A DNA stretch of 64,000 nucleotides from Nevskiales bacterium. GTDB taxonomy: Bacteria > Pseudomonadota > Gammaproteobacteria > Nevskiales > CAJXLF01. A program made the position numbers and the translations under genes. The notes under the pieces are model-generated. The model worked only from the letters and a program-made list of their open reading frames with translations. It had not been told where the DNA came from and made no database searches. The stretch covers positions 68,084 through 132,083 of the forward strand of contig JBFJXR010000002.1 of the NCBI GenBank assembly GCA_041622995.1, read 5' to 3'. Each line of letters opens with the position of its first letter. The stretch's first letter is position 1. Shown in pieces: positions 1 to 24,657 of the stretch.

Positions 1-528
1 ATTTGTCATCAGTGGCCCGTATTTCGAGCTGCGTTTGGCATGAAGCCGGGCCAATTGAATGCCGAGGTTGCCTAGATGCTCAATCGGGGTATCGAGTTCG
101 AATATTTCTCCCTCAATATAATTGCTGACCAGATTAACTGATGCGTGTTGGAGGTAATACGGCCATGTCGTGTTGGAAGTAAGGACTTTCGGTGTATTTA
201 CCCCCAGATTAGGCGCCTGGGCAAGAAAACACGCCAGGTTACGCAAGCCTCTGGGGGTGTAATGTATATATACAATACACCTGCCTGCATATGTGTCGAG
301 CATGAGTTTGCGGAATTTGTAGTTTCTTCTGATCCGCTCAATGCGGAATTCAGCTGTATCGTACCCCGCTTCTTTGAGAACTCCATTCAGGTACCCCTTG
401 GATTCAAGGGAAGATTGCAGCGTGATAAGAAACCCGGGAAGCGAATTTCTTATGGATGTTTCCTTGCTAATGGGTTCAAGTGGCACGAAATAAGATTCTC
501 TATTGAAAATTTCATGGCTGGAAATCAT
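1..528 (-). CDS. Protein-kinase-like / aminoglycoside-phosphotransferase-fold protein. The 5' part lies in the window and the 3' end is cut off by the left edge.
   Basis: Manual reverse-strand translation from ATG (528..526) to base 1 gives 176 codons with no stop: MISSHEIFNRESYFVPLEPISKETS...LVSNYIEGEIFELDTPIEHLGNLGIQLARLHAKRSSKYGPLMTN. The YIEGE hinge plus LG..LA.LH pattern is typical of APH/ePK-like kinases and parallels the 14290..15186 protein (LIEYIEGSEP...IGISLAQMH). An AGGGG Shine-Dalgarno-like element sits just upstream. The ORF track misses it because the ORF runs off the edge. Confidence 0.55.
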   Translation of the reverse strand, partial: MISSHEIFNRESYFVPLEPISKETSIRNSLPGFLITLQSSLESKGYLNGVLKEAGYDTAEFRIERIRRNYKFRKLMLDTYAGRCIVYIHYTPRGLRNLACFLAQAPNLGVNTPKVLTSNTTWPYYLQHASVNLVSNYIEGEIFELDTPIEHLGNLGIQLARLHAKRSSKYGPLMTN

Positions 529-711
529 TGCCCCTACATCAGAGATATGGAACCGGACGCTGCCTGCCACAAGAGACTGCTACGGAGAGTATTCTACTTT
601 ACCCGGTCATTGAAAGTATTATTTATGGGGCATTAATATGGATACTTTCTCCCTTACTCTCTGACTGTAGTAGAATTTCGCCCTCATTAATTACATTTTA
701 CTGAGTTCCGA

Positions 712-1893
712 ATGCTGAAGAAGAAATTGCCTGTTATGACCGTTATGGCATTGGTTATTGCTGGCTGCGCCAATCTTCCCTCTCAAGGGCCCCGGGTTGC
801 TGATATTCAGCAGGAATATCAATCGGCTAAAGAGCGAAAGTTTGAACTCGTCGAAGTGAATGAGAAAACGATCACCGTGCTTAAGCGACAGTCCTCGGAA
901 GGGCTGTATGCCCGTTTCGGTGATTACCGTCCTTCGCCAAGCCCGACAATCGGCATAGGAGACGGACTGGCAATAACAATCTGGGAGACCGGCCAGAACA
1001 GCATGTTTGGTGGGGGAGGCGGTAAGTTCTCAGGTATAGAGGGCTTGAAAAGCCCAGGCAATAACGACTCTTCACTGCCAATTCTTACAGTTAATAGAGA
1101 AGGCCGGATCACCGTGCCCTATGTTGGGCAGGTAAGTGTTGTGGATCGTACGCCATTTGAAGTTCAATCTGTGATCCAGGAAGGCCTGGCTGGCAAGTCC
1201 GTTGAGCCTCAGGTGCTTGTGACTATTGCTAGGCGTGCATCGTCCGCGGTAACTATTGTTGGTGAGGTGGTTTCCGGTGCGCGTATTCCCCTTGATGAAT
1301 ATAGTTATCGATTGCTTGATGTGATCGCAACGACAGGCGGCATTAAGGTGCCTTTGCATGAGGCTTACGTACAGATAACGCGTTCTGGTAATACGGAAGT
1401 CGTACCGTTTAAGGATATTCTTGAAAATCCTATGGAAAACATACAGATGCACCCGGGGGATGTGGTTGCGGTTTTACGCCGACCACAAACCTATACGGTG
1501 TTTGGCGCAACGGGACGTAACTCACAGATTACGTTTGATACTCCAAAACTAAACTTGCTTGAGGCTCTGGCAAAATCAGGTGGTCTGTTAGACCCATTGG
1601 CAGACCCTAAGGGTGTTTATTTGCTCAGACATGAGCCAGTAGAGGTGGTTAACGAGCTTGTGGATGACCGACAGGCACCCTCGAGACAGGATGGCGTTCC
1701 AGTCATATATCAGATAGATATGAGCAAGGCCGGGAGTTACTTTACCGCGCAATCTCTTGAGGTAGAAAATAGAGATGTGCTCTATGTTTCCAGCGCTTCT
1801 GCAACAGAGCTGCAAAAATTCCTGTTATTGGTTGGTCTGATTTCCCAGCCGATTATTACCGGTGCAACGGTTACCAGTGTGGCTGATAACTAA
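712..1893 (+). CDS. Outer-membrane polysaccharide export lipoprotein (OPX family, CtrA/BexD/Wza-like)
   Basis: 393 aa. Lipoprotein signal peptide (MALVIAGC). Size and sequence pattern match Poly_export plus SLBB domain proteins such as Neisseria CtrA and Haemophilus BexD. It sits in the same locus as KpsE/M/T-type genes. Confidence 0.85.
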   Translation: MLKKKLPVMTVMALVIAGCANLPSQGPRVADIQQEYQSAKERKFELVEVNEKTITVLKRQSSEGLYARFGDYRPSPSPTIGIGDGLAITIWETGQNSMFGGGGGKFSGIEGLKSPGNNDSSLPILTVNREGRITVPYVGQVSVVDRTPFEVQSVIQEGLAGKSVEPQVLVTIARRASSAVTIVGEVVSGARIPLDEYSYRLLDVIATTGGIKVPLHEAYVQITRSGNTEVVPFKDILENPMENIQMHPGDVVAVLRRPQTYTVFGATGRNSQITFDTPKLNLLEALAKSGGLLDPLADPKGVYLLRHEPVEVVNELVDDRQAPSRQDGVPVIYQIDMSKAGSYFTAQSLEVENRDVLYVSSASATELQKFLLLVGLISQPIITGATVTSVADN

Positions 1894-1954
1894 CTTAATA
1901 ACTATAAGTGCCAATTTGTTTGTACATTCACCTAATAACCCGATGATTTAGTCT

Positions 1955-4900
1955 ATGACTTTTATTTCTTATGCACAGAATTATGAAGACGTAACACTTT
2001 GGCGTGCGTTGAAGCATGTCAAAAATGGCACTTATATTGATGTGGGTGCGCAACATCCTGAGGAGTGTTCAGTAACAAAAGCGTTTTACGATTCTGGTTG
2101 GACCGGTATAAATGTAGAGCCAGTAAAGCAGTGGTTTAAACTTATAAAGGAGAGCAGGCCTAAAGACATAAATTTAAATATTGCCTTAGCAGATAAAGTT
2201 GAAGCTAAAAGAACTTTATTTGAAGTTGAAGGCACAGGCATGTCAACGTGCAATCGTAAATACGCAGATATGCACGAAAAAGATGGTTTTAAAGTCAAAA
2301 AAATATTAGTGCCTACCTCAACTTTATCCGAATTGTGCGAAAAGTATATCTCGGATGAAATTCATTTCCTGAAAATAGACGTAGAAGGCGCTGAGAAAGC
2401 AGTGCTCGAAGGAGCGGACTTCTCAAAGTATCGACCATGGGTGATTTTAATTGAAGCAACTGAACCAAATAGCCCAATTAGTGCACATAAAAATTGGGAA
2501 GATATTTTGCTTAAGAATAATTATAAATTCGTATGGTTTGATGGGTTGAATCGCTTTTATGTGTCTGGCGAAAAAAGAAAAGAATTGGCGAAGCTGATTG
2601 CGCAGCCGCCCAACATTTACGATGAATTTACGCCTAATACCCAAAATGTCTATTTAAAAAATATAAAAGAATTAACTAATAAAATCGAAAGTCTTTCATG
2701 TGAGCTTACCGCACTTGAAAGCCAGAAAATTAGTATTTCAGATGAATTAGAATTGACCCACCAAACAAGTCATAGACTGTTATTAGAAAAGCAGCAGCTC
2801 GAGGCTGATTTATCCCAAGTTAATACTGTGCTTAATAACTATATTGCACTTTGGGAAAATTCTCAGAATGAAGTTAAAGGGCTTTATGAAACGAGAGGGG
2901 AATTAAGTACTCATATTTCTTACCTCGAAAATGAAAAAAATGAATTGATTAGAAAAACTAAAAAAACTGCAATTGAAATTTCGCAATTAGTAGAAAATTT
3001 AGAGGTTGCAAAGAATGAGGGGGATAAAGCTAAGTTGAAATGCGAGGAACTGAGTTCGCAGCTTTCAATATTAGAAGGTCAGCATTCTGAGTTAATACAG
3101 CAAAATAATTTAAATCGACAGCATATTGAGTACATAGACCCAAAGTATTCTTTATTGGAAGATGAGCATGTAAGGCAAGTTGCACAAGAGCAACTCTATA
3201 AAAGACATATTGCTTATATCGAAGCCAAACTATTAAAAATTGAAAATAGCAGTTCCTGGAAGTTAGTTAAGCCGTTCAGAGCAGGGAAACGTCGTTATAG
3301 AAAGGACACTAAGAAAATACGTAAGGCGCTGAAAAGGTTTTATGTAAAAGTATTCAGGCCGTTAAGTAAAAACGATGGTGTGAAGAGGACTGAATTTAAA
3401 GTAATTGATCGAGGAAATCTGAATCTGCCGAACACTGATACGGATTCGATACAATACGCGTTATCCGTAGGGCAAAGAATTATTTACTACTATGTGGATC
3501 ACACTTTAGATTGCCCGGTTAATACAGGTGTACAACGAGTAACGCGTAATCTGGCAACTAAGTTGATCGATAGTGGTGAGAAAATAGTATTTGTGAAGTG
3601 GGATGCGGAACTTAATAAAATAATTCTTCTAAATAGAAATGACCTAGATAATCTTGAAAAATGGCAAGGTCCTAAACTTGGATTTGAAGATAAAGCAATA
3701 TATCCGGCTAAAGGTGAAAAAGTAGAGATATCACAAGAGCATATTTATGACGAGGGACATTGGCTTTTAGTGCCAGAAGTACCATTCATAACCTTTCATC
3801 CTGAGCCGGTAACTTTAAACTTAATATTGGCTGCTAAGGTAGCAGGGCTACGCTCGGCATTTGTTTTTTACGATGCTATACCTCTTAAACGCCCAGAGTT
3901 TGTTGATATCGCTCCTGTTCACGAGGAGTATATGCAGCACTTGCTCCTGGCCGACCTTATCTTTCCAATTTCTGACTTTTCAGCAAACGACCTCCATGCG
4001 TTCTTTAAATATAGACTGGGAGCCGATAATTCGTCAGTTCCAAAGATAAAAAGTATACGGCTACCCGCGGAATCATTGTTTGCTAAAAGAGTAAGTGAGC
4101 CACTTCCTAAGCGGGAAAAGTTGATTCTATCTGTAGGCACTCTGGATAGACGTAAAAATCAACTCGCACTGGTTAGAGCCTTTTTGCATTGCATGGATAA
4201 AGGACCAGATATGGGTTGGAAACTCATATTGGTTGGGAGTGTTCATGATGATATTAAGGATGAATTGCATAACCTTATAAAGGACAACAAAGCAATAGAA
4301 CTGCGCAAAGATGTGGGAGATGATGAGTTAGAGAATCTGTATGAAGATTGTTCATTTACCGTCTTCCCTTCTGTTGAAGAGGGTTTTGGATTGCCAATTC
4401 TTGAAAGTCTTTGGCATGGCAAACCTTGTATTTGTGCAAGCTTTGGCGCAATGGCTGAAGTCGCAGTGGGTGGGGGTTGTATTCAGGTTGACGTTAATAA
4501 TGAAAGTAAAATTGCAAACGCCGTGGGACAATTGATTAATAATCCTAAGAAGCTTGAAAAGCTTTCTATAGAAGCAGTAGAAAGGCAGCTTTCAAGTTGG
4601 GCTGACTATGCTAAAGAGGTGTCTCAGCTGCTTGATACCACTTCTGATGCACGCTCCAGGATTGGAACAATATATTATTTGGTGGAGCATACTTTTAGTT
4701 TTGCTCATAACACAGGGATTCAACGTGTAGTAAGGAGTTTGGCTAAAGGATTGCTTGAATCTGGTTACCAATTACAAGCTGTTAAATGGAATAGCGAAAC
4801 TGGTAAATTCTATTCGCCGACTATAGATGAGTTATCCCATTTATCAAAGTGGAATGGTCCTGATGTAAACCTCTGGAAAATCGGTGAGCTGCCAGAAAGA

Positions 4901-6943
4901 TTTTCAATAAAAGATTGGCTTTTGATACCAGAGCTTACGGTTTATTCTGGAGCACATGATCTTAAGAAGCTTAAGGCCTCTACAGATGAAGTAGGGCTTC
5001 GAGTCGCATGGATATTTTATGATGCGATTCCATGGAAAATGTCTGATATTTATCCCCAACACTGGGGCGATGCTCACGCAGAATACATGAGGGCATTGAA
5101 TACTTTTGATCTGGTTCTGGCAATTTCACGACACAGCAGAAATGATCTGAAGGAATACTTGAAAACTACCGGTTGTAGAATGCCAGAAGTTGATCGCAGA
5201 ATCCTTGCTTGTCAGCTTCCAGGCGAATTTTCACACATTAAAAGAATTACTGAAGTTAAAAATGATGTTGATGACAAGGTTAGAATATTGTGCGTAGGAT
5301 CTGTGGAGTTAAGGAAAAACCAGACCACATTAATAAACGCATTTGACTTGGTTAACAAGAGCACGAAAAAAAATATTGAATTAGTAATAGCAGGTGGGTG
5401 TTACCTTCCAGAAGAATATATACAACCATTTAGGGATCTCGTGTCATCGACTGCCGGAGTGACTTGGATCGAATCCCCTGATGACAAGCAACTAAGTGAG
5501 TTATATGAATGTAGTGATTTTAGCGTTTATCCGTCCGTTGAAGAAGGTTTTGGTTTGCCAATTCTTGAGAGTCTTTGGCATTGTCGTCCTTCAATTTGTC
5601 ATAACAAAGGGGCAATGGCAGAAGTAGCAGAAGGTGGTGGATGTCTCACTGCGGACGTCACTGACGTTGACGCACTAGCAGAAGCTATTTCGACTCTAGT
5701 TGACAATAAAAGTAAAAGACTGGAACTTGCAAAGCATGCCAGCAAGATGACATTCCGTAGTTGGAAAGAGTATGCGAACGATGTCGTCTATAGGATGACC
5801 AATTCTGCTGTATTTAAAGTACCCAATAATGATCTGACCAACGTTTCTCTACCTGCTACAGCTTCTGCATTCAGCAAGAAATTTATCAATACTGATCAAA
5901 TGCCATTGTTGTCAATTTGCATATCTACATATAACCGTGCTCCTTGGTTGAAAGTAAGCTTGAGAAACTTGGAAAGGCTAATAGGTGAGGGCGAAGATGG
6001 TATTGAAGTAGTTGTTTGTGACAATGCCTCAACTGACAACACTTCTGAAATTGTAAAGCCTTACCTGTCACGTAAGGATTTTCATTACCATAGAAATAAA
6101 GTCAATGTTGGAATGTTGGGTAATTTAAGTGTTACAGCAAATAAAGCCAGAGGTAAATATGTCTGGATTCTCGGAGATGATGATTTGGTTTTACCAGGTG
6201 CTATCGAAAGGATTTTGCACACAATTAAGAGAAACAAAGACTTAGCACTCGTATATTTGAATTATTCGTATACACGAGAAGATGCGCCAGATTCTGTCGA
6301 GAACCTGGATAGCTTTCTACAAAAAGGAATTCCAATAGTTGCACCAGAGGAAGATTTCTATGGGTCAGTTGCTGAATGTTCAGTTAGATCAGAAAACTTC
6401 TTCACGGCAATATATTGTTTGGTATTTAGGCGAGATCACGCGATAAAAGCCTATTCGCAGAATACGGATGGACGACCATTCAGCACTATGCTTACCTGTA
6501 TACCAACAACTTATCACGTACTTAATGAAATGATGGACTTGCCTGCTGCTTGGATAGGTGAGCCGCAAGTTGTTATTAATATGAATGTTTCCTGGCTTAA
6601 ATATGCGTCTCTTTGGATATTGGAGAGATTCCCGGAAGTTTATGATCGAGCTGAGATTATGGGCGCAGACCCCAAGAGTGTGGATAAATGGCGAATAAAT
6701 TACATACCTCACATAAAAGACCAGTTTGCAGGAATATTTGAGAATGACCCTGAAGAAAACGCTATTTACTTCAATCCAAAAAAACTGGTTACAAGATATA
6801 AGCACCTTGAGGAATTCAGAGCGGAGTTTCCTTATTTAATAGATATATATAAGCGTGCCCATCAGGCTGGAAAGATAGGGGCGGAACTTCCTGTCTCACA
6901 AGTATTTCCCGCACTCAACGTTGAATCCAGAAGCGAGGGTTAA
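1955..6943 (+). CDS. Multidomain polysaccharide assembly protein. Approximate domain spans: FkbM-type methyltransferase 1955-2600, coiled coil 2650-3245, GT4 module 1 3470-4650, GT4 module 2 4655-5800, GT2 domain 5897-6600, followed by a C-terminal extension.
   Basis: 1662-aa ORF. The N-terminus (QNYEDV...YIDVGA...FLKIDVEGAEKAVL) is FkbM-like. About 200 aa are heptad-rich and Glu/Leu/Gln/Asn-rich (KNIKELTNKIESLSCELTALESQK...EAKLLKIENSSSW). Two GT4 cores each carry EEGFGLPILESLWH. The GT2 signature is LSICISTYNR...VCDNASTDNT...LGDDD. Confidence 0.85.
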   Translation: MTFISYAQNYEDVTLWRALKHVKNGTYIDVGAQHPEECSVTKAFYDSGWTGINVEPVKQWFKLIKESRPKDINLNIALADKVEAKRTLFEVEGTGMSTCNRKYADMHEKDGFKVKKILVPTSTLSELCEKYISDEIHFLKIDVEGAEKAVLEGADFSKYRPWVILIEATEPNSPISAHKNWEDILLKNNYKFVWFDGLNRFYVSGEKRKELAKLIAQPPNIYDEFTPNTQNVYLKNIKELTNKIESLSCELTALESQKISISDELELTHQTSHRLLLEKQQLEADLSQVNTVLNNYIALWENSQNEVKGLYETRGELSTHISYLENEKNELIRKTKKTAIEISQLVENLEVAKNEGDKAKLKCEELSSQLSILEGQHSELIQQNNLNRQHIEYIDPKYSLLEDEHVRQVAQEQLYKRHIAYIEAKLLKIENSSSWKLVKPFRAGKRRYRKDTKKIRKALKRFYVKVFRPLSKNDGVKRTEFKVIDRGNLNLPNTDTDSIQYALSVGQRIIYYYVDHTLDCPVNTGVQRVTRNLATKLIDSGEKIVFVKWDAELNKIILLNRNDLDNLEKWQGPKLGFEDKAIYPAKGEKVEISQEHIYDEGHWLLVPEVPFITFHPEPVTLNLILAAKVAGLRSAFVFYDAIPLKRPEFVDIAPVHEEYMQHLLLADLIFPISDFSANDLHAFFKYRLGADNSSVPKIKSIRLPAESLFAKRVSEPLPKREKLILSVGTLDRRKNQLALVRAFLHCMDKGPDMGWKLILVGSVHDDIKDELHNLIKDNKAIELRKDVGDDELENLYEDCSFTVFPSVEEGFGLPILESLWHGKPCICASFGAMAEVAVGGGCIQVDVNNESKIANAVGQLINNPKKLEKLSIEAVERQLSSWADYAKEVSQLLDTTSDARSRIGTIYYLVEHTFSFAHNTGIQRVVRSLAKGLLESGYQLQAVKWNSETGKFYSPTIDELSHLSKWNGPDVNLWKIGELPERFSIKDWLLIPELTVYSGAHDLKKLKASTDEVGLRVAWIFYDAIPWKMSDIYPQHWGDAHAEYMRALNTFDLVLAISRHSRNDLKEYLKTTGCRMPEVDRRILACQLPGEFSHIKRITEVKNDVDDKVRILCVGSVELRKNQTTLINAFDLVNKSTKKNIELVIAGGCYLPEEYIQPFRDLVSSTAGVTWIESPDDKQLSELYECSDFSVYPSVEEGFGLPILESLWHCRPSICHNKGAMAEVAEGGGCLTADVTDVDALAEAISTLVDNKSKRLELAKHASKMTFRSWKEYANDVVYRMTNSAVFKVPNNDLTNVSLPATASAFSKKFINTDQMPLLSICISTYNRAPWLKVSLRNLERLIGEGEDGIEVVVCDNASTDNTSEIVKPYLSRKDFHYHRNKVNVGMLGNLSVTANKARGKYVWILGDDDLVLPGAIERILHTIKRNKDLALVYLNYSYTREDAPDSVENLDSFLQKGIPIVAPEEDFYGSVAECSVRSENFFTAIYCLVFRRDHAIKAYSQNTDGRPFSTMLTCIPTTYHVLNEMMDLPAAWIGEPQVVINMNVSWLKYASLWILERFPEVYDRAEIMGADPKSVDKWRINYIPHIKDQFAGIFENDPEENAIYFNPKKLVTRYKHLEEFRAEFPYLIDIYKRAHQAGKIGAELPVSQVFPALNVESRSEG

Positions 6944-6944
6944 A

Positions 6945-8183
6945 ATGGATAATTATTGGAAAATTGATGGATGCCGGATCAGTGGTAGCAAAAATCTGGT
7001 TTCTGTACTTGATCTCGGGAAGCAGGCATTAACCGGTGTTTTTCCTACTCATCAGGATGAACATGTGACCGAGGGGCCGCTGGAGTTAGTTTGGTGTCCA
7101 GATAGTGGTTTATTACAGTTAAATCATTCATACGAGCCTACGGAAATGTATGGTGATAACTATGGATACCGTTCAGGTTTAAACCAGTCCATGGTGGATC
7201 ATCTCACTAGCAAAGTGGCATATCTTGAACGTCTTGCTTCACCTCAGGCAGGTGATGTCATTGTTGACATAGGAAGTAATGACTGCACCACTTTAAAAGC
7301 CTATAGAACTCAGGGGCTTAGACGCATAGGTATAGACCCAACTGGTAAGAAGTTTCTTCAGTATTATCCGAAAGAAATTACACTTGTTGCAGATTTCTTT
7401 TCAAGTGGCGCTTATCGAACTGTGGAGTCTTCAAAAGCGAAAATAGTCACTTCAATTGCGATGTTCTATGACCTGGAGTCTCCAGTAGAATTTGCCCGGC
7501 AGATCGCATCAATATTAGCGGACGATGGTATTTGGCATTTTGAACAAAGTTATATGCCCTCTATGCTCCGGACAAATTCGTATGACACCATTTGCCATGA
7601 GCACCTGGAGTATTACTCACTTGGCGCAGTTAAATACATTCTGGAAGAGGCAGGCTTGAGAATTGCTGACGTAGTTATGAATGGGGTAAATGGGGGAAGC
7701 TTCGCGGTGACTGCGGCGAAAAAAGAGAATCAAACCATCCCGACCAATAGTGCTGTGATTGATTGGCTACTTGAGCAGGAAGAACGAATGGGTTTGGGGA
7801 CGGATCAACCACTTCGTGAATTTAAAGAGCGTGTTTTCAGACATCGTGACGACCTGACAAGACTAATTCGTGCACTCAATGCTGACGGCAAAAAAGTCTT
7901 GGGCTACGGCGCATCCACCAAAGGTAATGTTCTATTACAGTTTTGTGGATTTACCGAGAAAGATATACCAGCAATAGCAGAGGTGAATCCTGATAAATTT
8001 GAATGTTTCACCCCGGGTTCACGCATCCCTATAATTTCAGAAGATGATGCGAAGGCCATGAATCCTGATTACTTCCTAGTGCTGCCCTGGCATTTTAAGA
8101 GTGGAATCCTGGAAAGAGAGAAGGATTATCTGGCTTCGGGTGGCAAGATGATTTTCCCGTTCCCTGAAATCGAGATAGTTTAA
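6945..8183 (+). CDS. Class I SAM-dependent methyltransferase of the NDP-sugar C-methyltransferase-like family (Methyltransf_13/14 architecture)
   Basis: Sequence pattern DGCRISG..LVSVLDLGKQALTGVFP...PLELVWCPDSGLLQL...YGYRSG.N.SM..HL, a SAM motif VVDIGSNDC, and a C-terminal domain with LGYGASTKGN and FLVLPWHF. I moved the start to the ATG at 6945, directly after the upstream stop; the ORF-track start at 6921 overlaps the previous gene. Confidence 0.75.
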   Translation: MDNYWKIDGCRISGSKNLVSVLDLGKQALTGVFPTHQDEHVTEGPLELVWCPDSGLLQLNHSYEPTEMYGDNYGYRSGLNQSMVDHLTSKVAYLERLASPQAGDVIVDIGSNDCTTLKAYRTQGLRRIGIDPTGKKFLQYYPKEITLVADFFSSGAYRTVESSKAKIVTSIAMFYDLESPVEFARQIASILADDGIWHFEQSYMPSMLRTNSYDTICHEHLEYYSLGAVKYILEEAGLRIADVVMNGVNGGSFAVTAAKKENQTIPTNSAVIDWLLEQEERMGLGTDQPLREFKERVFRHRDDLTRLIRALNADGKKVLGYGASTKGNVLLQFCGFTEKDIPAIAEVNPDKFECFTPGSRIPIISEDDAKAMNPDYFLVLPWHFKSGILEREKDYLASGGKMIFPFPEIEIV

Positions 8184-8197
8184 GGATAAACATATAA

Positions 8198-9234
<1,037 letters not shown>

Positions 9235-9235
<1 letters not shown>

Positions 9236-10101
9236 TGCGATTACTCATAACAGGAGCTGCAGGATTTACAGGTAGTTATGTTTCCAAGTCAGCAAAAGAG
9301 AATAACTACAAAGTGTACGAGCTTAAATCTAATCTATGCAATTCTACAGAAGTTGAAGATGAGATCGCTAACTTTAGGCCTACTCATGTTATACATTTGG
9401 CATCAATTAGTGCAGTTACTCACGCGGAAGAATTGGCTTTTTATCAGGTAAACCTATTTGGCTCCCTTAATTTGCTTAAGGCATTGACTAAGCTTGTCGT
9501 GCCGCCTGAAAAAATTATTCTTGCTAGTAGTGCTAATGTATATGGGAACACAGCTGTATCGCCCATATCTGAGGCTCAGATTCCTTGCCCGAATAATCAT
9601 TATGCCGTCAGTAAATTATCAATGGAGTATCTCTCGCAGACATACATGGGTGCGTTGCCAATTGTCTTGGCACGACCGTTTAATTACACTGGGGTAGGTC
9701 ATGATCAACGGTTCATAATTCCAAAGTTGATTAAGCATTTCACATCTAAAGAGGCCACTATCGAGCTAGGTAACATTAATGTAGAACGGGAATTTAATGA
9801 TGTTCGTTTTGTGTGTGAGGCCTACATGTCGCTCTTGGAGTCTGGCAGAGCTGGCGAAATTTATAATATATGTAGTGGCAAACCAACAAGTTTACGATCT
9901 GTTATAGACATACTAAGAAATATGACTAATCACGATATTGAGATAGTAACAAACAAAAAGTTTATGCGCGATAATGAAGTTTACAGCTTATGCGGCGACC
10001 CCAGTAAGTTAATTTCTTGTATTGGGGAAGTAAACTCAATTTCTCTAGAAGACACCTTAGGATGGATGCTTGATAGTTTTTCTCGTGGTGACTCGATCTA
10101 G
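9235..10101 (+). CDS. rmd: GDP-4-keto-6-deoxy-D-mannose reductase (Rmd-like; product GDP-D-rhamnose or possibly GDP-6-deoxy-D-talose)
   Basis: 288-aa SDR with TGAAGFTGSY and YAVSKL motifs. It is translationally coupled to gmd (the ATG overlaps the gmd stop), the same gmd-rmd pairing seen in D-rhamnan loci. The stereochemistry of the product cannot be read from sequence. Confidence 0.75.
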
Positions 10102-10126
10102 CTAGAAAATTTCAGGTACTCTGAGG

Positions 10127-10777
10127 TTACATGCTCCGAGAATATACTTCGATTGCCTCATGTATATTGCCAAAGTAACGAACGCCTTTATTCTCCACAA
10201 TTAAGGCGGAGTCACAAGTTTGTGCAAGAAGCCCAAGTTCGTGAGATGCGACTATTAGGGCTTTATTCTGTGATCTATCAAACAGTGCCTCCATGCATTT
10301 TGAGTGGAACCTTTGGTCTCCCACGAGCATAACTTCGTCAATTAAATAACAATCAAAGTCGATAGCTATGGACAGTGCGAAGGCTAATCGTGCTCGCATG
10401 CCAGAGGAATACGTTTTTACAGGCTTGTACAAATGAGCACCTAGTTCTGAGAAATCGTCAACATATTCGTATAAATCATCAAATTTTGTATCGTAAATTC
10501 TGGCAATAAAACGAATATTGTCAATCCCGGTGAGGCTTCCCTGAAATCCGCCAGAAAAACCTAAGGGCCACGATACTGACATTTTGTGGTGGATATAACC
10601 ACTACTTGGCAATTCAACCTTGCCAAGCATACGGATCAGAGTTGATTTCCCAGCGCCGTTTCGGCCAATGAGTGCCAGATGATGCCCCTTAGGAACCTGG
10701 AAGTTAATATTTTCGAGTATTGAATATTTTTTACCGTGTATAAAATAATGCTTATACAGTTCGTTTACTTCTATCAT
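10127..10777 (-). CDS. kpsT: Capsule/polysaccharide export ABC transporter, ATP-binding protein (KpsT/CtrD/BexA type)
   Basis: 216 aa. Walker A GRNGAGKST, SWPLGFSGGFQGSLTG, signature YSSGMRARLAF, and Walker B YLIDEV. Collinear with E. coli KpsT. No C-terminal carbohydrate-binding extension. Confidence 0.92.
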   Translation of the reverse strand: MIEVNELYKHYFIHGKKYSILENINFQVPKGHHLALIGRNGAGKSTLIRMLGKVELPSSGYIHHKMSVSWPLGFSGGFQGSLTGIDNIRFIARIYDTKFDDLYEYVDDFSELGAHLYKPVKTYSSGMRARLAFALSIAIDFDCYLIDEVMLVGDQRFHSKCMEALFDRSQNKALIVASHELGLLAQTCDSALIVENKGVRYFGNIHEAIEVYSRSM

Positions 10778-11577
10778 TCCATCTCAATATACTTTCTAAC
10801 ATTAACCGAGAGAATCAGGCCAATTAGGATCAAAAAAAGACAGGTATATGTCACATAAGGAATGTCATAGTGCATATGTAGAGCCGGGCCAAATTGTCCG
10901 GCTCGTATGAGTTCAAATCCATGCACGCTGGGAAGTAATAAGGCTACCTTCTGTGCGGGATAAGGAAGCCAGTCCACAAGATAAAATGCACCAGATAGGG
11001 GAGCCATGATATATAGCAATGGTGACGTAAGTTTTTCTATCCAATCAAACTGCTCACTTAAACATGAAACTATTAATGCAGTGCCTATACTAAATAGAAT
11101 CAGATATATCCAACCGAGGTAGAACAAGCCGTAATTGACTGGTGGATCGTAAATTCCAACCAGATAAAACCCGGAACAGATGACAATGAATGCCATAATC
11201 GTTCCGTAGACCTCCAGCATTATTCTTGCTACAAGTATATCCATCAGGCCAATTTGCTTATGGTAGAGCAGTCCGGCATTTGCCTGAAAGCAATTTGTGG
11301 AGCGGGAAACGGAATGCCTCCACATGGTTAACGGTGCATAGCCAGTTAAGACAAACGCAGCGACAGGCACACTATTGTCATTAGGAGATCTTACTGAATA
11401 CCACAGAAAGACAACTATAAGCGTAAATAGAAATGGTTCCCCTACTACCCAAAGTGCCCCGATATTATCCCTACCGAATCGTGTGTGCACTTCACGAATC
11501 ATTAGCGCACTAATGATTTTTATTCGATACCTTAAGTCCAGAATCAAAGATAATGGGGCAATAAATACGTTACTCAT
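10774..11577 (-). CDS. kpsM: Capsule/polysaccharide export ABC transporter permease (KpsM/CtrC/BexB type, ABC-2)
   Basis: 267 aa and multi-pass hydrophobic. Its ORF overlaps kpsT by 4 nt. Length and position match KpsM. Confidence 0.88.
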   Translation of the reverse strand: MSNVFIAPLSLILDLRYRIKIISALMIREVHTRFGRDNIGALWVVGEPFLFTLIVVFLWYSVRSPNDNSVPVAAFVLTGYAPLTMWRHSVSRSTNCFQANAGLLYHKQIGLMDILVARIMLEVYGTIMAFIVICSGFYLVGIYDPPVNYGLFYLGWIYLILFSIGTALIVSCLSEQFDWIEKLTSPLLYIMAPLSGAFYLVDWLPYPAQKVALLLPSVHGFELIRAGQFGPALHMHYDIPYVTYTCLFLILIGLILSVNVRKYIEME

Positions 11578-11592
11578 TAGATTATTTTGACG

Positions 11593-12777
11593 CTATCTCT
11601 GAGAATGTTCACGTAAGCCAGTCATTAATAATCGGGAAATTGAATACATCAGAAATAGACTCATAAAAATGATGCAGATAGATTTGAATTTTTGAGGGTA
11701 TTTGGCTTCATCTGGAACGTTGGGTTCAACTACTCGATCGAGATAAATTAATTGTCTCCGGGCTTCCGCTTTGGCGGAAGCTAACGATCCGACCGCAGAT
11801 GCCAGCTGCTTCGCTGCAAACTCCTGGCGCAGGACTAATTCTTCGTACATCCCAACTTTTGGCGCAAGTGATTTTTCATCGCCAGTGAGTTTAGCCATTT
11901 CATTATTATATTGACGTTCTATAGAGTTTATGTGAGCTTTTAAACCCCGTATCATCGGATTAGATGGAGAGGACTGCTGCATTTCACTCAAACGAGCCCG
12001 GCTCATGATCAGTTCTACTCGAAGTTTTGCCAATGATTCGGCAAATGCTTCTGTGGCTGATTTGGGGTCGAGCACCTCTTCCCTGTTTCTATAATTCAGC
12101 ATTTTTAACTGAATCTCTGTAACTTTCTCTTCTGCAATTTGAACGTCTTTTTCAGCATCGCCTATTGCATTATTTCTGGATCTTTCATTTAGCCTGTTAA
12201 CAAGCCCCTCACTCTCGTCAAGTAAAATATTTACAATCAATTGTGCGTCATCGGGAGAGAAGGCCCTTGCCGTTAAAGTTGTAATGCCCGTGGCTGAATC
12301 AAATACTATGGATATATTTTTCGAATAATATTCATATAAACCTTCAAATGAATTATCGTTAAGAATATTTGGATATTGCGAGAGAAAGTCAGCATCCTTG
12401 TTGCCATAAATATTTTTTAAATCAATGTGTTTCTGTAATGATTTAATGCCGTCTCGAGAAGTAATGAATTCATGAACAATAAAGAGACTGTCATGAGTTG
12501 GCGAAAGGCCTGCTTGCTGAAAAAAATTGGCGAACATGCTCATCTGTCGCTGCTGTGAACTGCGAACAATAAACCGGCCTTCAGACTCGTACATGTCAGT
12601 GGCAATAAAAGAATAATAAATTATGGCAAGTAGTGTGGGCAGTATTAAGAACAGGATTGCCCCAGAATTTTCGGTAATTGCTTTTAATAATGCGTTAGGC
12701 CGCTTTGGTTTTGCGGGTACAATCGTGTGAACTTCTAGGTTTTCTGTCGTCTGAATATCTATAGTATCTGTGTTCAC
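11593..12777 (-). CDS. kpsE: Capsule polysaccharide export inner-membrane protein (KpsE/CtrB/BexC, PCP-3 family)
   Basis: 394 aa. An N-terminal TM segment (ILFLILPTLLAIIYY), a long periplasmic coiled region and a C-terminal hydrophobic helix. Located upstream of kpsM-kpsT. Confidence 0.85.
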   Translation of the reverse strand: MNTDTIDIQTTENLEVHTIVPAKPKRPNALLKAITENSGAILFLILPTLLAIIYYSFIATDMYESEGRFIVRSSQQRQMSMFANFFQQAGLSPTHDSLFIVHEFITSRDGIKSLQKHIDLKNIYGNKDADFLSQYPNILNDNSFEGLYEYYSKNISIVFDSATGITTLTARAFSPDDAQLIVNILLDESEGLVNRLNERSRNNAIGDAEKDVQIAEEKVTEIQLKMLNYRNREEVLDPKSATEAFAESLAKLRVELIMSRARLSEMQQSSPSNPMIRGLKAHINSIERQYNNEMAKLTGDEKSLAPKVGMYEELVLRQEFAAKQLASAVGSLASAKAEARRQLIYLDRVVEPNVPDEAKYPQKFKSICIIFMSLFLMYSISRLLMTGLREHSQR

Positions 12778-12893
12778 TATATGTAATGGCCTGTGATGTG
12801 CTGCAAAATAGCAGCTAGTTTCAGTTTAAATGGATTACGAGTTAATGGTTGATTCGTTGGAAGCTCATTATAATGTATAAATAAAAGTAAGAT

Positions 12894-12905
12894 GACGGTA
12901 GTTTG
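12894..12905 (+). promoter_or_regulatory. Candidate ops-like (RfaH recruitment) element in the 5' leader of the GT4-kinase-fcl operon
   Basis: GACGGTAGTTTG matches the E. coli ops sequence GGCGGTAGCGTG at 9 of 12 positions and the GGCGGTAG core at 7 of 8. It lies on the coding strand about 85 nt upstream of the 12986 start. Confidence 0.25.
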
Positions 12906-12985
12906 TATTGTAAGCTACAGACTTTTACGACAATACCCATTTCAGGCTCATTATCTGCGCTTGTAATTAATGAACCTTAGACATT

Positions 12986-14293
12986 TTGATGGCAAACAAT
13001 AAACCAATTATATTTTTTGACGCTAGTCGGCTATTCAATCGTTTGCTTTCATCTACACCAGCTGGAATTGATCGTGTGGATTTGGCATATGCAAAAAAAT
13101 TCTTGCATGATCAAGAATACACAGTGGCATATATTGTTTATGGGAAAAAAGGACACTTTATATTTCCCAGATTAATAGTCATATTATTTTTGTGGGTTGC
13201 AGAATTCTCTTCAAGAAACCGGGATGCCAAGTTTAGTAGTAGGGTTGCCTTTCCACTAGTAACATCACTCGTTGCTTATTTCCTTCGCCCAAGTAATTTT
13301 CTCTGGATACTTAAGTTTTTTAGATGGATGAGTGTATTGGGTCTGCCACGTCATCCCGAAAGCATCATTTCAAAATCTACTCTCGTTGCGGTCTATATTA
13401 ATGTTTCTCACGGAAAGTTAACAAAATACAGGCGCTTTTCCTGGTTAAAAGATAATAATGTATCGGGTGTTTTTTTTGTACATGACCTGATTCCAATACT
13501 AAATCCAGAGTTTTGTACTGATAAGCAGGCTGAGAGACACCGTGCCCGTTTGGAAATGATTTCTCAGCATGCCGATTTGATTATTTCAATATCTGAAAAC
13601 ACAAAAGAAGAATTAGTGAGATATTTTTCGAAGGAAAAACTGTCATTGCCTGAAATTCAAGTGCTTCCACTTGCAGTTGATGGTATTTGTCATGCAAATG
13701 AAGTGAAGCCGGTAATTGAAAATCCAACTACGTATTTTGTAATTTTATCTACTATTGAGCCTCGAAAAAATCACCTAATGTTGCTGAAAATCTGGAAAAG
13801 GTTGGTTAAGGATTTTGGGCTTGCAGCGCCAAAATTAGTAATCATTGGTCGACGCGGGTGGAAGAATGACAAGGTATTCAGGTTGTTGGAGGATAAGGAG
13901 CTAGAGCCATATGTACATGAATACAATGACCTATCCGACGGCCAGGTTAAAAGTCTTTTGCTGGGTTCAAGGGCACTGATCTCGCCTTCTTTTGTTGAAG
14001 GATACGGGCTTCCTGTTGTTGAGGCATTAAGCTTAAAAGTGCCGGTTATCGCATCTGATATTCCTTCGCATCGTGAAATAGGAAAATCTGTTCCAGATTT
14101 CATTGATCCATATGATGCAGAATCTTGGTACGCTCATATCGTAGCTTATACAGATTCTGAGAATACGATGAGGGCTTCTCAACTGGAGCGCATGAGTGAT
14201 TTCAGCATCATAAGTTGGAAGGAGCATATGCTGACATTTGATAAGCTCTTGAAAGAACTTGTAGTCAAAAAATCAGTAGTTTCTAAAGCATGA
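12986..14293 (+). CDS. Glycosyltransferase family 4 (GT-B, retaining type)
   Basis: 435 aa. The C-terminal half has EPRKNH, GRRGW and SFVEGYGLPVVEALSLKVPVIASDIPSHREI (the EX7E region). The N-terminal half contains hydrophobic stretches. The start is either TTG at 12986 or ATG at 12989. Confidence 0.8.
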   Translation: MMANNKPIIFFDASRLFNRLLSSTPAGIDRVDLAYAKKFLHDQEYTVAYIVYGKKGHFIFPRLIVILFLWVAEFSSRNRDAKFSSRVAFPLVTSLVAYFLRPSNFLWILKFFRWMSVLGLPRHPESIISKSTLVAVYINVSHGKLTKYRRFSWLKDNNVSGVFFVHDLIPILNPEFCTDKQAERHRARLEMISQHADLIISISENTKEELVRYFSKEKLSLPEIQVLPLAVDGICHANEVKPVIENPTTYFVILSTIEPRKNHLMLLKIWKRLVKDFGLAAPKLVIIGRRGWKNDKVFRLLEDKELEPYVHEYNDLSDGQVKSLLLGSRALISPSFVEGYGLPVVEALSLKVPVIASDIPSHREIGKSVPDFIDPYDAESWYAHIVAYTDSENTMRASQLERMSDFSIISWKEHMLTFDKLLKELVVKKSVVSKA

Positions 14294-15186
14294 AAAGCCT
14301 GACGCCGGAAATCAGGGCAGAGTTAGAGGCTGTTATTGGTAATATTCAGCAGGTTACACTTTTGCACAAACGCTGGATTCGACGTCGCGAATCCTACAGA
14401 CCAGTGTCTAAAAGATCTCCCAAGGTTTACTTGTTGTCGTCAGAGTCTGGTGTGCGGTATAAATTATTGATCGGTAATGAGGGCGGCAGTCGTATCAGCC
14501 GAATCAGGCATTATTCAGAACAATGTGCTGGTTTCTCATTCTTCCCTGAGTTGGCTTCAAGCGGTGATGACTGGTTACTGATTGAATATATTGAAGGAAG
14601 TGAGCCCGATTTTTCTTCGAAAGGCTTTGCCTATGATATAGGCATCTCACTTGCACAAATGCATCTCCTAAATAGGAGGCCATGTGATGCTTCTAAGATT
14701 CAAGAGCATTTGCGAAAGGATATCCATCAGCTTCAAAAATACGGGCACCTGACTACTAATAAAGATGTGGCTCTTGTATGGAACGTTTTTGAGAGGCTGA
14801 ATTTGGGAGTCTGTCCCACCAGCCTGGATTATTTTGATGTCAAGCCGAGCAACTTTATACGCGCCACCAATGGACAGATATATTTTGTCGACCTGGGTGC
14901 GATAGGAGAAAACTGGCCTACGGGCCAATTTCTATTCGGTAGCTTGCATTACGATAAACTGAAAATGAGGTCGTTTGCTGAAGGATACCTTTCAGGTGGT
15001 GGAGATCAGGCTATATTAGATCGTGGCTTACCGTTCAGGGTTCTTCACTGCTTATGGTTGGCTGCACACTATTACAGAAGGGCTGCTGAAATACCGTTCT
15101 ACGTAGCACCGATGAAATATGGTTTTCAGATAATGGGTAGAAGACTGATTAATAAAAGTCTTCACCTTGCTTCGGATTGTATGTAG
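14290..15186 (+). CDS. Eukaryotic-protein-kinase-like kinase, candidate glycan (chain-end) kinase
   Basis: 298 aa. Hinge LIEYIEGSEP. Catalytic loop FDVKPSNFI (D-x-K-P-x-N, nt 14836-14853). DFG-equivalent FVDLG (nt 14890-14898). A lysine candidate lies in VRYKLLIG. The start overlaps the GT4 stop (ATGA). Confidence 0.65.
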   Translation: MKSLTPEIRAELEAVIGNIQQVTLLHKRWIRRRESYRPVSKRSPKVYLLSSESGVRYKLLIGNEGGSRISRIRHYSEQCAGFSFFPELASSGDDWLLIEYIEGSEPDFSSKGFAYDIGISLAQMHLLNRRPCDASKIQEHLRKDIHQLQKYGHLTTNKDVALVWNVFERLNLGVCPTSLDYFDVKPSNFIRATNGQIYFVDLGAIGENWPTGQFLFGSLHYDKLKMRSFAEGYLSGGGDQAILDRGLPFRVLHCLWLAAHYYRRAAEIPFYVAPMKYGFQIMGRRLINKSLHLASDCM

Positions 15187-15253
15187 ATATAATAGAATCA
15201 GAATGAGTGCGCGCTGGCTCTTTACTATTAAACGCATCCTTTAAGGGAAAAAC

Positions 15254-16210
15254 ATGCAAGAACAACCACGGGTATTTGTTGCTGGCCATCGTGGGATGGT
15301 TGGATCTGGAATTGTCCGTGCATTGAAGAGTCGAGGTTATGAATCAATTTTAACGGCTCCTCATTCCGAACTGGATCTTCAAGACCAACGTCAAGTTCAA
15401 AATTATTTTGCAAAGGAAAAACCAGACCAGGTATATATTGCGGCTGCTAGGGTAGGTGGCATATATGCAAATAATACTTTCCCAGCACAATTCATTTATG
15501 AAAACCTGATGATTCAGTGCAATATTGTCGATGCGGCATGGCGTGAAGGGGTAGAGAAATTGCTTTTTCTTGGCTCCAGTTGCATTTATCCCAGAGAAGC
15601 ATCCCAGCCCATTACCGAAGATTCGCTACTTACGGGAAAACTAGAGCCTACAAATGAGCCCTATGCCGTGGCCAAGATAGCCGGTATTAAACTTTGTGAG
15701 TCCTATAACCGCCAGTATGGATGCGATTTTCGGAGCGTTATGCCTACAAATTTATATGGTCCTGGTGATAACTATGACCCGGAATACTCGCATGTCATCC
15801 CGGCATTATTGCGTCGGTTCCATGAGGCAAAAGTAGAAGATAAGGATGAAGTGGTTATTTGGGGTACTGGCAAGGCAAGGCGTGAATTTCTACATGTTGA
15901 TGATATGGTTGATGCATCCGTATTTACAATGGAACTGGATTGCGAAAAATACAAAGACCATACCTTAGAGATGCAATCGCATATTAATGTTGGTACAGGT
16001 ACGGATACTACTATTGCTGATCTTGCCAATTTATTGAAGTCCACAGTAGGTTATGAAGGTGAGATCAAGTTTGATACATCAAAACCGGACGGACCACCCC
16101 GTAAACTACTGGATGTGAGTCGCTTGAGTTCTTTAGGTTGGCAATCCCGAATCAATCTTGAAGAGGGGTTGAAACTGGCCTATCAGGATTATATTAATGA
16201 GCATGTTTAA
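15254..16210 (+). CDS. fcl: GDP-L-fucose synthase (GDP-4-keto-6-deoxy-D-mannose 3,5-epimerase/4-reductase)
   Basis: 318 aa. [31 protein letters not shown] and [10 protein letters not shown] are the characteristic Fcl/WcaG pattern. Confidence 0.92.
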
Positions 16211-16365
16211 ATCAGCCTGAATTCACTGATTATAAGTATTAATGAGTAGTTTTTAGGTCGACAAGAAATCGTCCTTATCTAATTTATTTACTTTAATTGA
16301 AGCGTCTGGAAGTTCTATAGACTAGTCTTTAGCTATCCAAATCGCCAACAAATTGCTTTAGCATT

Positions 16366-17529
16366 ATGAATGCAGAAAAATTTATTAATTTCCTCTATCT
16401 ACTAATTTTTGAAAGAGAAGCCGATGCGGATGGCTTGAAAAATTGGAGTAATGAATTGCGGGCGGGGAAGCTCCCCATTGAGATTTTTAATATATTTTTG
16501 AATTCGGAAGAGTTTAAACAAAAATCAGTTACTCATCGCTACTTTAGAAATAATGTGGATGAGAATCAATTACTTTTTAAAGGACGCAACCGAACAGAGA
16601 TACAAAAAGAATTCGATGACAGTGTTGATTTGCTTGATTTGATAAATTTGGAGGATGATTGGGCTCGTTTTGCCGAAATAATCAGAAAAGACCATTTGCG
16701 GGCTAAATCAGATTCAGAATTTGCTTATTTTTTAGAGACCCTCTACCTGGAAGAAGATCGAGTTAAATCATTTGACCGGTTCCTTAAAAGCTATGAGTTG
16801 AAATATTCGATTGAAGTATTAAGGGCGATGAATGTTGAGAACGATGCTGCTATCTGTGAGGTAGGAGGGGGGAACGGCGCATTTTCCTGGGGGCTGATGA
16901 AAAAGGGTTTCAATAATTTACATTTATTCGAGCCGAACGGCGATTTTATTACAGGTACTGGATACCTGAAATCCAGAGAAGATAGTCAATCGCTCAAAGT
17001 TTATAACGATTTGCATGCTTGGCACGACGACTCATTATTGTATGAAACCATTATTAGTAAGGCGTGTATTCACCATTTCGGCAATATAAGTATGGTTGCC
17101 GGCTCCATCAGGCAAAAAATGAAGATGGGTGGTTTGTGGTTTGCATTTAGAGAGTGGTTCGCTGACAGCCCCAGTGAGTTGGCAAACCTAATGACGAATC
17201 ACCCCTATTGCCAGCAGTACAAATTGTATGAATGGCCCTCTCCGGCGTCAATCTATGTGGAATCTTTTGAAATGGTGGGATTAGAATTAATAGCAATTGT
17301 TCCTGAGGGATATGCAGATAATTCCATTGCTACGCATCATGAAATAGAACCATCTGAGGTCGCCAAGAGTTTTACTGAAGAAATTAACGATACATTACGA
17401 AATAATCCCGAGGAAACAGTTAATAAATTCTGGAAAGAGTATTTTTCTAGTAAAACAGGTTCTTCATTTGATGAAAAATATTCAAAGCCCCAGGTGATGA
17501 TATTTCGTAAGGTGCCAGTTTCTATTTAA
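16366..17529 (+). CDS. DUF4214-domain plus class I SAM-dependent methyltransferase fusion
   Basis: 387 aa. The N-terminus FINFLYLLIFEREADADGLKNWSNELRAGKLPIEIFNIFLNSEEFK fits the DUF4214 consensus. The central segment has SAM motif I, ICEVGGGNGAFSW. Confidence 0.65.
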   Translation: MNAEKFINFLYLLIFEREADADGLKNWSNELRAGKLPIEIFNIFLNSEEFKQKSVTHRYFRNNVDENQLLFKGRNRTEIQKEFDDSVDLLDLINLEDDWARFAEIIRKDHLRAKSDSEFAYFLETLYLEEDRVKSFDRFLKSYELKYSIEVLRAMNVENDAAICEVGGGNGAFSWGLMKKGFNNLHLFEPNGDFITGTGYLKSREDSQSLKVYNDLHAWHDDSLLYETIISKACIHHFGNISMVAGSIRQKMKMGGLWFAFREWFADSPSELANLMTNHPYCQQYKLYEWPSPASIYVESFEMVGLELIAIVPEGYADNSIATHHEIEPSEVAKSFTEEINDTLRNNPEETVNKFWKEYFSSKTGSSFDEKYSKPQVMIFRKVPVSI

Positions 17530-17552
17530 TCAGAATAGGTAGTCAACCGAAA

Positions 17553-24654: not shown

Positions 24655-24657
24655 AGG

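Follow-up and report, generated by a model that had tools for sequence, protein, structure and literature searches.

A divergent Kps-type capsule locus with an O-antigen-style polymerase cassette in a Nevskiales bacterium

In the pathways for capsules that depend upon an ATP-binding cassette (ABC) transporter, the enzymes KpsS and KpsC make a primer in which 3-deoxy-D-manno-octulosonic acid (Kdo) is linked to phosphatidylglycerol (PMC12220298), and the conserved regions by which the group 3 kps clusters of Escherichia coli are defined consist only of kpsDMTE and kpsCS (PMC10433991). How the chain length of these capsules is controlled is unknown; a 2025 review calls for "a yet-to-be identified factor" (PMC12220298), and no chain-terminating residue is known for the capsule ABC pathways (PMC11231755). 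A capping reaction combined with a coiled-coil ruler has been shown experimentally for WbbB, WbdD and ORF6 of Klebsiella pneumoniae O7, and a coiled coil together with a distal terminator domain is regarded as a marker of this terminator/ruler strategy (PMC11231755). The present work concerns a stretch of 64,000 nucleotides, hereafter referred to as the window, from a Nevskiales bacterium (assembly GCA_041622995.1, contig JBFJXR010000002.1, positions 68,084 to 132,083), in which export genes of the capsule type bracket a biosynthetic cassette that includes a 1662-aa multidomain polymerase. Based upon its gene content, the window is predicted to hold most of a complete, divergent ABC-transporter-dependent capsule locus (Kps, group 2/3-like) of about 31 kb. 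Coordinates given below are window positions unless another contig is named.

The family scans on which this assignment is based covered open reading frames (ORFs) of at least 100 aa across the window, and the NCBIfam scan within the window consisted of the locus genes at 145–18572 and 22875–23714. The original prediction for this DNA had described, between positions 712 and 12777, an OPX gene and oppositely oriented kpsE, kpsM and kpsT genes on either side of a giant glycosyltransferase, a methyltransferase, gmd and rmd, and all of these were recovered at the expected places by the ORF map and the family scans. The capsule locus is, however, wider than this interval, starting about 3.9 kb to the left of the window and ending at about position 27147. 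The OPX lipoprotein (712–1893, + strand), which is of the CtrA/BexD/Wza type, contains the Poly_export (PF02563) and SLBB (PF22461) domains and a lipobox (LVIAG-C, with cleavage before the cysteine), and is matched by Wza structures at E = 1e-18; used alone as a query against genome contigs, it retrieved no relative. The KpsT-type protein (10127–10777, − strand; 216 aa) is the sole ABC ATPase in the locus. It matches PF00005 only, with no C-terminal carbohydrate-binding module, and it aligns over its full length with the ATPase of the KpsMT-KpsE complex (8TSI_A) at 2.3e-57, whereas the best Wzt entries reach only about 2e-34. For the KpsM-type ABC-2 permease (10774–11577, − strand) the best NCBIfam match is to NF050053 (82.5 bits, below the cut-off) and the only PDB match is to 8TSH_C (6e-13). 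KpsE (11593–12777, − strand), a periplasmic adaptor of the PCP-3 (KpsE/CtrB/BexC) family, matches TIGR01010 with 280 bits (E = 2e-83; cut-off 437) and 8TSH_E at 3.7e-31. Because the best or only solved-structure match of KpsT, KpsM and KpsE is in each case to the KpsMT-KpsE complex (8TSH/8TSI), the transporter is judged to be of the Kps type and not of the Wzm/Wzt type. A Wzt protein with a C-terminal carbohydrate-binding module (PF14524) is absent from the locus, whereas homologous cassettes elsewhere have this Wzt_C domain (e.g., locus L004, described below).

As the original prediction had stated, no PF05159 (KpsC/KpsS), KpsF-type SIS/CBS or KpsU-type cytidylyltransferase domain was detected in the scanned ORFs of at least 100 aa in the 64-kb window. 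However, an exact-sequence look-up of the OPX gene led to a 14-kb metagenomic contig (L001), positions 9290–11700 of which correspond to window positions 1–2411 at 99.917% identity (2 mismatches), and which reaches 9.3 kb further to the left. The gene cut by the left edge of the window (1–570, − strand; PF01636, E = 1.6e-8) comprises the first 190 codons of a 395-aa gene for an APH-family kinase, and its product is 100% identical over 190 aa to that of the L001 kinase gene (L001 8672–9859, − strand, 395 aa). The next gene on L001 (6608–8659, − strand) encodes a 683-aa KpsC with two PF05159 stretches, where residues 28–316 match KpsC-N (6MGB, 1e-60) and residues 365–652 match KpsC-C (6MGD, 4e-69), and H-P-D/E-V-type motifs align in both of these modules. 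The gene for KpsS (L001 5349–6611, + strand; 420 aa), divergent from that for KpsC, lies about 2.7–3.9 kb to the left of the window edge; its product matches model positions 14–389 of the 390 in NF050054 (E = 9e-111), with a score under the 600-bit equivalog cut-off of this model, and also PF05159 at 249 bits. As KpsC and KpsS adjoin the window on a contig that is 99.9% identical to it, their absence from the 64 kb is a window-edge artefact, and no alternative lipid anchor has to be invoked. Of the two explanations that had been offered for the missing linker genes, the one placing them outside the window is therefore borne out; the other, a different lipid anchor, is unsupported, and kpsC and kpsS were found immediately left of the window, the very place named beforehand as the one where their presence would tell against it. 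No SIS/CBS or CTP_transf_3 protein indicative of kpsF or kpsU was present in the window or on L001, and since these two genes belong to the E. coli group 2 clusters only and the group 3 clusters are defined without them (PMC10433991), their absence carries no weight.

The large polymerase gene (1955–6943, + strand) was analysed by means of Pfam matches, an AlphaFold (AF2) model and an alignment of homologues. Its 1662-aa product consists of an FkbM methyltransferase domain (residues ~20–220), a coiled coil (~228–471), two successive GT4 glycosyltransferase modules (~505–900 and ~905–1290) and a GT2 module (~1314–1600). In the AF2 model, which covers residues 1–520, the FkbM domain has a pLDDT of above 90, and it is followed by helices at residues 228–309, 315–430 and 433–471; the long helices of residues ~228–471 are modelled at a pLDDT of about 83, and residues ~232–430 are free of proline and heptad-like. 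The coiled coil that had been proposed for this protein is hence real. About 80 full-length homologues share the same architecture at 35–52% identity, all of them annotated merely as "FkbM family methyltransferase", and in an alignment of 26 homologous sequences strict conservation of the FkbM domain contrasts with a linker that differs in both length and sequence from one protein to another. A Foldseek search with the N-terminal model retrieved only generic class-I methyltransferases and coiled coils, and searches of the PDB revealed no detectable sequence relation to WbbB, O7 ORF6 or WbdD/WbdA. The 1662-aa protein thus has a terminator-coiled-coil-glycosyltransferase architecture, and it is from this architecture that we infer its activity. 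A short motif, S-x-S-W-x-x-T-x-P-x-R, was also noted after the coiled coil (residues 432–442; window 3248–3280). Across the 26 homologues, in which the linker around this motif is otherwise unconserved, S432 and R442 never vary, and conservation is 90% or higher at S434, W435, T438 and P440; the motif could be a docking or membrane-association site.

The polymerase gene is followed by those for a sugar C-methyltransferase (6921–8183, + strand) with Zn-binding, S-adenosylmethionine (SAM)-dependent methyltransferase and C-terminal domains (PF08421, PF13489 and PF08484), the GDP-mannose 4,6-dehydratase Gmd (8198–9235, + strand; TIGR01472, 481 bits vs. a cut-off of 415) and an rmd-like SDR reductase (9235–10101, + strand; PF01370/PF16363). 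The last of these is putatively a GDP-4-keto-6-deoxy-mannose reductase, and its placement right after gmd is kept in homologous loci. To place this cassette in a wider context, 80 loci from named genomes were collected by an alignment-based scan, and six-frame ORFs within ±10 kb of the polymerase gene were scored with seed proteins. A homologue of the C-methyltransferase was detected in 69 of the 80 loci. About 30 loci contain a Wzm/Wzt exporter, and among these Wzt is of the extended kind (at least 340 aa) in 23 and has a recognisable Wzt_C domain in about 19. KpsE, KpsM and KpsT are found together in 12 loci, from hosts that include Gallionella, Limnohabitans, Piscinibacter, Rhodobiaceae, Hyphomicrobiales, Aestuariivirga, Azorhizobium and two Sphingomonas species; OPX was in range in seven of these 12 loci, and KpsC and/or KpsS in three (L010, L016 and L022). 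The gene order of the window is repeated exactly in loci L016, L020 and L026, and in L022 the genes for KpsC, KpsS, OPX, gmd, rmd, the polymerase, the C-methyltransferase, a GT4 enzyme and KpsM/T/E all lie within about 18 kb. The Wzm/Wzt-linked arrangement is exemplified by L004, where Wzm and a 407-aa Wzt with Wzt_C are followed by the polymerase and then by the C-methyltransferase, gmd and rmd, and by L003 (Variovorax), where the polymerase lies alongside Wzm and a short Wzt.

In a neighbour-joining (NJ) tree of the polymerases, the Kps-linked proteins did not form one clade; they were scattered in several places among the Wzm/Wzt-linked ones. The glycosyltransferase region of the window protein shows 51–53% identity to its counterparts from the Wzt-linked loci L004, L005, L006 and L008 and 49% to the best Kps-linked one, and the nearest labelled neighbour of the window polymerase was Wzm/Wzt-linked in 200 of 200 resamples, as was also the case for L022. 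The scattered branching of the Kps-linked proteins, and the Wzm/Wzt-linked nearest neighbours of the window and L022 polymerases, indicate that the cassette consisting of the polymerase, the C-methyltransferase, gmd and rmd is a portable module whose exporter type appears to have changed more than once. As the same cassette is coupled in other bacteria to Wzm/Wzt exporters of O-antigens, the present locus is a mosaic of capsule anchoring and export with O-antigen-style polymerisation. The idea of a hybrid assembly line in the original prediction therefore stands as regards the union of capsule export with O-antigen-style biosynthesis (the cassette being Wzm/Wzt-linked in about 30 genomes and KpsE/M/T-linked in 12), but not as regards a different anchor, and its fallback label of an ordinary group 2 locus is not quite right either, as the cassette is shared with Wzm/Wzt systems.

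The linker between the FkbM domain and the glycosyltransferase modules is longer in the Kps-linked polymerases (median 485 vs. 231 aa; Mann-Whitney p = 0.002, or 0.011 with sister pairs collapsed). That this difference consists purely of extra coiled coil was rejected, since part of it is due to DUF4214 domains, which are inserted in the polymerase linker of L010, L020 and L026. DUF4214 also heads two methyltransferases encoded in the window, one with a SAM methyltransferase domain (16366–17529, + strand; PF13946 and PF13489) and the other with an FkbM domain (17553–18572, − strand; PF13946 and PF05050), and a possible role for this domain is the recruitment of modifying enzymes to the polymerase.

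The explanation that we favour, and regard as probable when taken as a whole, is that of a complete Kps capsule locus with a Kdo-lipid anchor and a fused polymerase of the O-antigen style, in which capping is a speculative element. The steps of this mechanism are derived from the established roles of the gene families concerned. KpsS and KpsC would build a β-Kdo oligomer on phosphatidylglycerol, upon which a transition glycosyltransferase would start the serotype-specific chain. The candidate for this transition or adaptor enzyme acting on the Kdo linker is a standalone GT4 glycosyltransferase (12986–14293, + strand; PF00534), orthologues of which (166–218 bits) were found in five of the 12 Kps-linked loci (L007, L010, L016, L074 and L079), whereas no Wzm/Wzt-linked locus scored above 89 bits. 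The GT4-GT4-GT2 modules would then polymerise, from GDP- and dTDP-sugars, a methylated glycan rich in 6-deoxyhexoses, whose likely residues are D-rhamnose, a C-methyl derivative, L-fucose and L-rhamnose. KpsMT would export the lipid-linked polymer, and KpsE and OPX would carry it to the cell surface. In the most speculative step, the N-terminal FkbM domain, separated by about 200 coiled-coil residues from the polymerase modules, would cap the non-reducing end and thereby limit chain length; for the present locus, capping and chain measuring by the 1662-aa protein are suggested by analogy with WbbB, WbdD and O7 ORF6. Points in favour of capping are the domain order, the conserved methyltransferase with its variable linker and, in related loci, the pairing with an extended Wzt that has a Wzt C-terminal domain. 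A bolder version of this proposal, which we put forward tentatively and consider to be possible but more doubtful than the explanation as a whole, would have the polymerase of this locus family build a Kps capsule on a Kdo-lipid anchor, cap its product with a methyl group and gauge the chain length by means of its coiled-coil ruler. The cassette would in that case have moved repeatedly between undecaprenyl-based O-antigen and Kdo-phosphatidylglycerol-based capsule pathways, the small adaptor GT4 switching the acceptor, and the longer linkers (of the median lengths given above) would encode longer capsule chains.

A number of observations weigh against the favoured explanation. KpsC and KpsS come from a separate metagenomic assembly and not from the window's own contig, and as L001 is a different assembly their synteny with the window rests upon the 2.4-kb overlap at 99.9% identity; the scores of KpsM, KpsE and KpsS are all under the NCBIfam equivalog cut-offs; the polymerase tree is an NJ tree without proper support values; and the Kdo-lipid anchor, the sugar composition and the terminal methyl group are all deduced from the genes present. 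In a different account of a complete Kps locus, methylation by the FkbM domain would be directed at internal residues of the repeat and the coiled coil would do no more than scaffold or oligomerise the polymerase. With neither cap nor ruler, the length of the chains would follow from how synthesis and export are balanced, which is also what is presumed for the group 2 capsules of E. coli. FkbM enzymes can methylate internal residues too, and the locus encodes four other methyltransferases to which either task could fall. KpsT has no carbohydrate-binding module with which a cap could be read, and reviews list no known terminator for the ABC-transporter capsules (PMC11231755; PMC12220298). Furthermore, the association of a fused FkbM domain with a long Wzt among the Wzm/Wzt-linked loci (11 of 12 vs. 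12 of 18) was a trend only and, not being significant (Fisher p = 0.19), it was dropped as evidence. Against internal methylation, the catalytic domain lies far from the glycosyltransferase modules across a long coiled coil, as it does in the experimentally defined terminators WbbB and O7 ORF6; the FkbM domain is strictly conserved although the linker length varies; and close homologues adjoin an extended Wzt with a Wzt C-terminal domain, which is the hallmark pairing of cap-dependent export. On balance, we consider this account rather unlikely, although it has to be taken seriously.

Two further possibilities depart more widely from a Kps capsule with a Kdo-lipid anchor. The cassette, which in other genomes is most often Wzm/Wzt-linked, could make an O-antigen that is ligated by WaaL and exported by a Wzm/Wzt pair encoded elsewhere, leaving Kps to export a different polymer. 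Against this, no gene of the Wzm/Wzt, WaaL or WecA/WbpL type was found in the DNA searched, which consisted of the 64 kb and the 9.3 kb to its left; the genes for WecA/WbpL and WaaL are often unlinked. In addition, OPX and kpsTME bracket the cassette, 12 distant genomes, among them the one with the compact locus L022 and those of the two Sphingomonas species, show the same linkage to Kps, and if the cassette is taken away just one standalone GT4 is left for the Kps exporter. Two glycans from one locus are for these reasons improbable. Even less credence can be given to a capsule that is independent of KpsC and KpsS and, like the Vi antigen, has a different lipid anchor. The lack of KpsC, KpsS, KpsF and KpsU within the window would be consistent with it, but with KpsC and KpsS adjoining on L001 it is refuted barring a rearrangement exactly at the window edge; additionally, the VexA-D models score far below the Kps models, and no VexE model found a match in the NCBIfam scan of the locus genes at 145–18572 and 22875–23714.

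The remainder of the locus encodes mainly sugar-nucleotide synthesis and further modification, and the sugar pathways represented are those for GDP-D-rhamnose-type sugars, GDP-L-fucose and dTDP-L-rhamnose. The start of a weak APH-like putative kinase gene (14290–15186, + strand; PF01636, E = 3.5e-4, below the gathering score) overlaps the end of the standalone GT4 gene. For neither this gene nor the kinase gene at the left edge of the window was a homologue found in any of the 80 related loci, and neither product had a significant match in the PDB, so that a WbdD-like kinase assignment is not possible; these two APH-fold kinase-like genes are specific to the present locus, and it is possible that their products phosphorylate the glycan or its terminus. 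The putative kinase gene at 14290–15186 is followed by GDP-L-fucose synthase (fcl; 15254–16210, + strand; NF047922, 515.6 bits vs. a cut-off of 500), the two DUF4214 methyltransferases described above, and manB (phosphomannomutase; PGM_PMM I–IV) with manC (GDP-mannose pyrophosphorylase/isomerase; NTP_transferase and MannoseP_isomer), which together span 18569–21363 (− strand). Next to manC is a gene for a methyltransferase of the cyclopropane-fatty-acid-synthase family (21403–22629, − strand; PF02353, E = 6e-79), which sits amid the sugar genes and may either act on a lipid anchor or be a bystander, and after it that for an FkbM-family methyltransferase (22875–23714, + strand; PF05050; TIGR01444, 88 bits). 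The locus ends with rmlD, rmlC, rmlA and rmlB of the dTDP-L-rhamnose pathway (23743–27147, − strand; PF04321, PF00908, PF00483 and PF16363). A 163-aa ORF at 145–636 (+ strand) was rejected as a gene; it is antisense to the kinase gene, has no family match and is almost certainly a shadow ORF.

The GC content is 37–46% within the capsule locus, compared with 50–55% in its flanks. The low-GC block begins about 3.9 kb before the left window edge and runs to about position 31200, and a tRNA-Val(gac) gene (31284–31360, − strand) is located at its right edge; this block of about 35 kb beside tRNA-Val looks like a horizontally acquired island. Between rmlB and the tRNA gene are two further genes, one for a 658-aa FG-GAP/ASPIC-UnbV repeat protein (27216–29192, − strand) and the other for a 466-aa protein with a Peptidase_S74 domain (29817–31217, + strand). 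This domain is the intramolecular chaperone of endosialidase-type tailspikes, and the latter gene is an odd neighbour for a capsule locus. From position 31445 rightward the window contains gammaproteobacterial housekeeping genes (uvrB, thrS, infC, pheST, ihfA, sdh and rpoE-rseABC-degP), and on L001, beyond KpsC and KpsS, leucine-catabolism genes with 51–55% GC are found. Homologues of PheT at 63% identity, from metagenome-assembled genomes of Nevskiales and Salinisphaeraceae, place the bacterium near Nevskiales/Salinisphaerales. Among the ORFs to the right, that at 46610–47452 (+ strand) encodes a release factor of just 280 aa, in which the PCRF match begins at profile position 61; this would be as expected if the gene is a prfB with a programmed +1 frameshift and its N-terminal part lies in another frame.

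The significance of these results lies in the finding that a full Kps system includes a polymerase of recognisable terminator/ruler architecture, which touches upon an acknowledged gap in the understanding of chain-length control in ABC-transporter capsules. If the bolder version of our proposal is true, it would provide the first chain-length mechanism for capsules of this kind; if the assignment of a terminator is wrong, what remains is one more divergent capsule cluster of the group 2/3-like kind, from a gammaproteobacterium that has not been cultured. A single polymerase cassette that can be plugged into two lipid-acceptor and export systems also bears upon the evolution of surface-glycan diversity and upon glycoengineering. 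Cultured carriers of the cassette, viz. Sphingomonas trueperi, S. pituitosa NBRC 102491, Limnohabitans sp. MMS-10A-178 and Azorhizobium doebereinerae UFLA1-100, make the idea testable.

In comparison with known capsule systems, the same set of KpsM, KpsT, KpsE, OPX, KpsC and KpsS flanks variable serotype-specific genes in the group 3 and group 2 kps clusters of E. coli, the ctr locus of Neisseria and the bex locus of Haemophilus. The present OPX resembles CtrA and BexD in likewise being a lipoprotein of about 390 aa. The locus differs from these systems in its gene order, with kpsS, kpsC, the kinase gene and OPX on one side and kpsTME on the other, in the divergence of its Kps proteins, which fall below the NCBIfam equivalog cut-offs, and in its single FkbM-coiled-coil-GT4-GT4-GT2 polymerase, the relatives of which mostly serve Wzm/Wzt. 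The E. coli group 3 clusters are similar to it in lacking kpsF and kpsU and in having rml genes (PMC10433991), and a 2026 survey of E. coli reported, without functional study, putative methyltransferase genes with coiled coils of variable length in many group 3 kps clusters (PMC13171606). As a tblastn search of plasmids with the N-terminal 450 aa of the polymerase (FkbM-coiled-coil) gave no Escherichia match, these E. coli methyltransferases are probably not homologous to the window polymerase and would belong to a different methyltransferase family. The Vi antigen of Salmonella Typhi (VexABCDE), a KpsMTED-like ABC capsule, is the textbook exception without KpsC and KpsS (PMC12220298). In contrast to it, both of these proteins accompany the present locus, whose products score far lower with the Vex than with the Kps models.

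Among the O-antigens, the common polysaccharide antigen (CPA) of Pseudomonas aeruginosa, a D-rhamnan (gmd, rmd, wbpXYZ and wzm/wzt), likewise depends upon the supply of GDP-D-rhamnose by gmd and rmd, on GT4-type rhamnosyltransferases and on ABC export, and it likewise contains methylated residues. CPA is, however, an undecaprenyl-diphosphate-linked O-antigen that is ligated by WaaL and made by separate glycosyltransferase proteins, whereas the present locus has fused glycosyltransferase modules, a C-methyltransferase, and Kps-type export and anchoring. In WbbB (K. pneumoniae O12/Raoultella), O7 ORF6 and WbdD/WbdA (E. coli O9a), the terminator domain and the polymerising glycosyltransferases are, as here, at opposite ends of a coiled coil (PMC11231755), and K. 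pneumoniae O7 ORF6 likewise begins with a methyltransferase domain, that of the present protein being of the FkbM type. These three systems make use of Wzm/Wzt with a carbohydrate-binding module on an undecaprenyl-linked glycan, whereas the present locus has KpsMT without such a module together with KpsC and KpsS. In the literature, no characterised Kps capsule with gmd/rmd or 3-C-methyl sugars, and none with the present cassette, was found, and the capsule type in which Kps export is combined with a terminator/ruler polymerase cassette of the O-antigen type is recurrent and uncharacterised.

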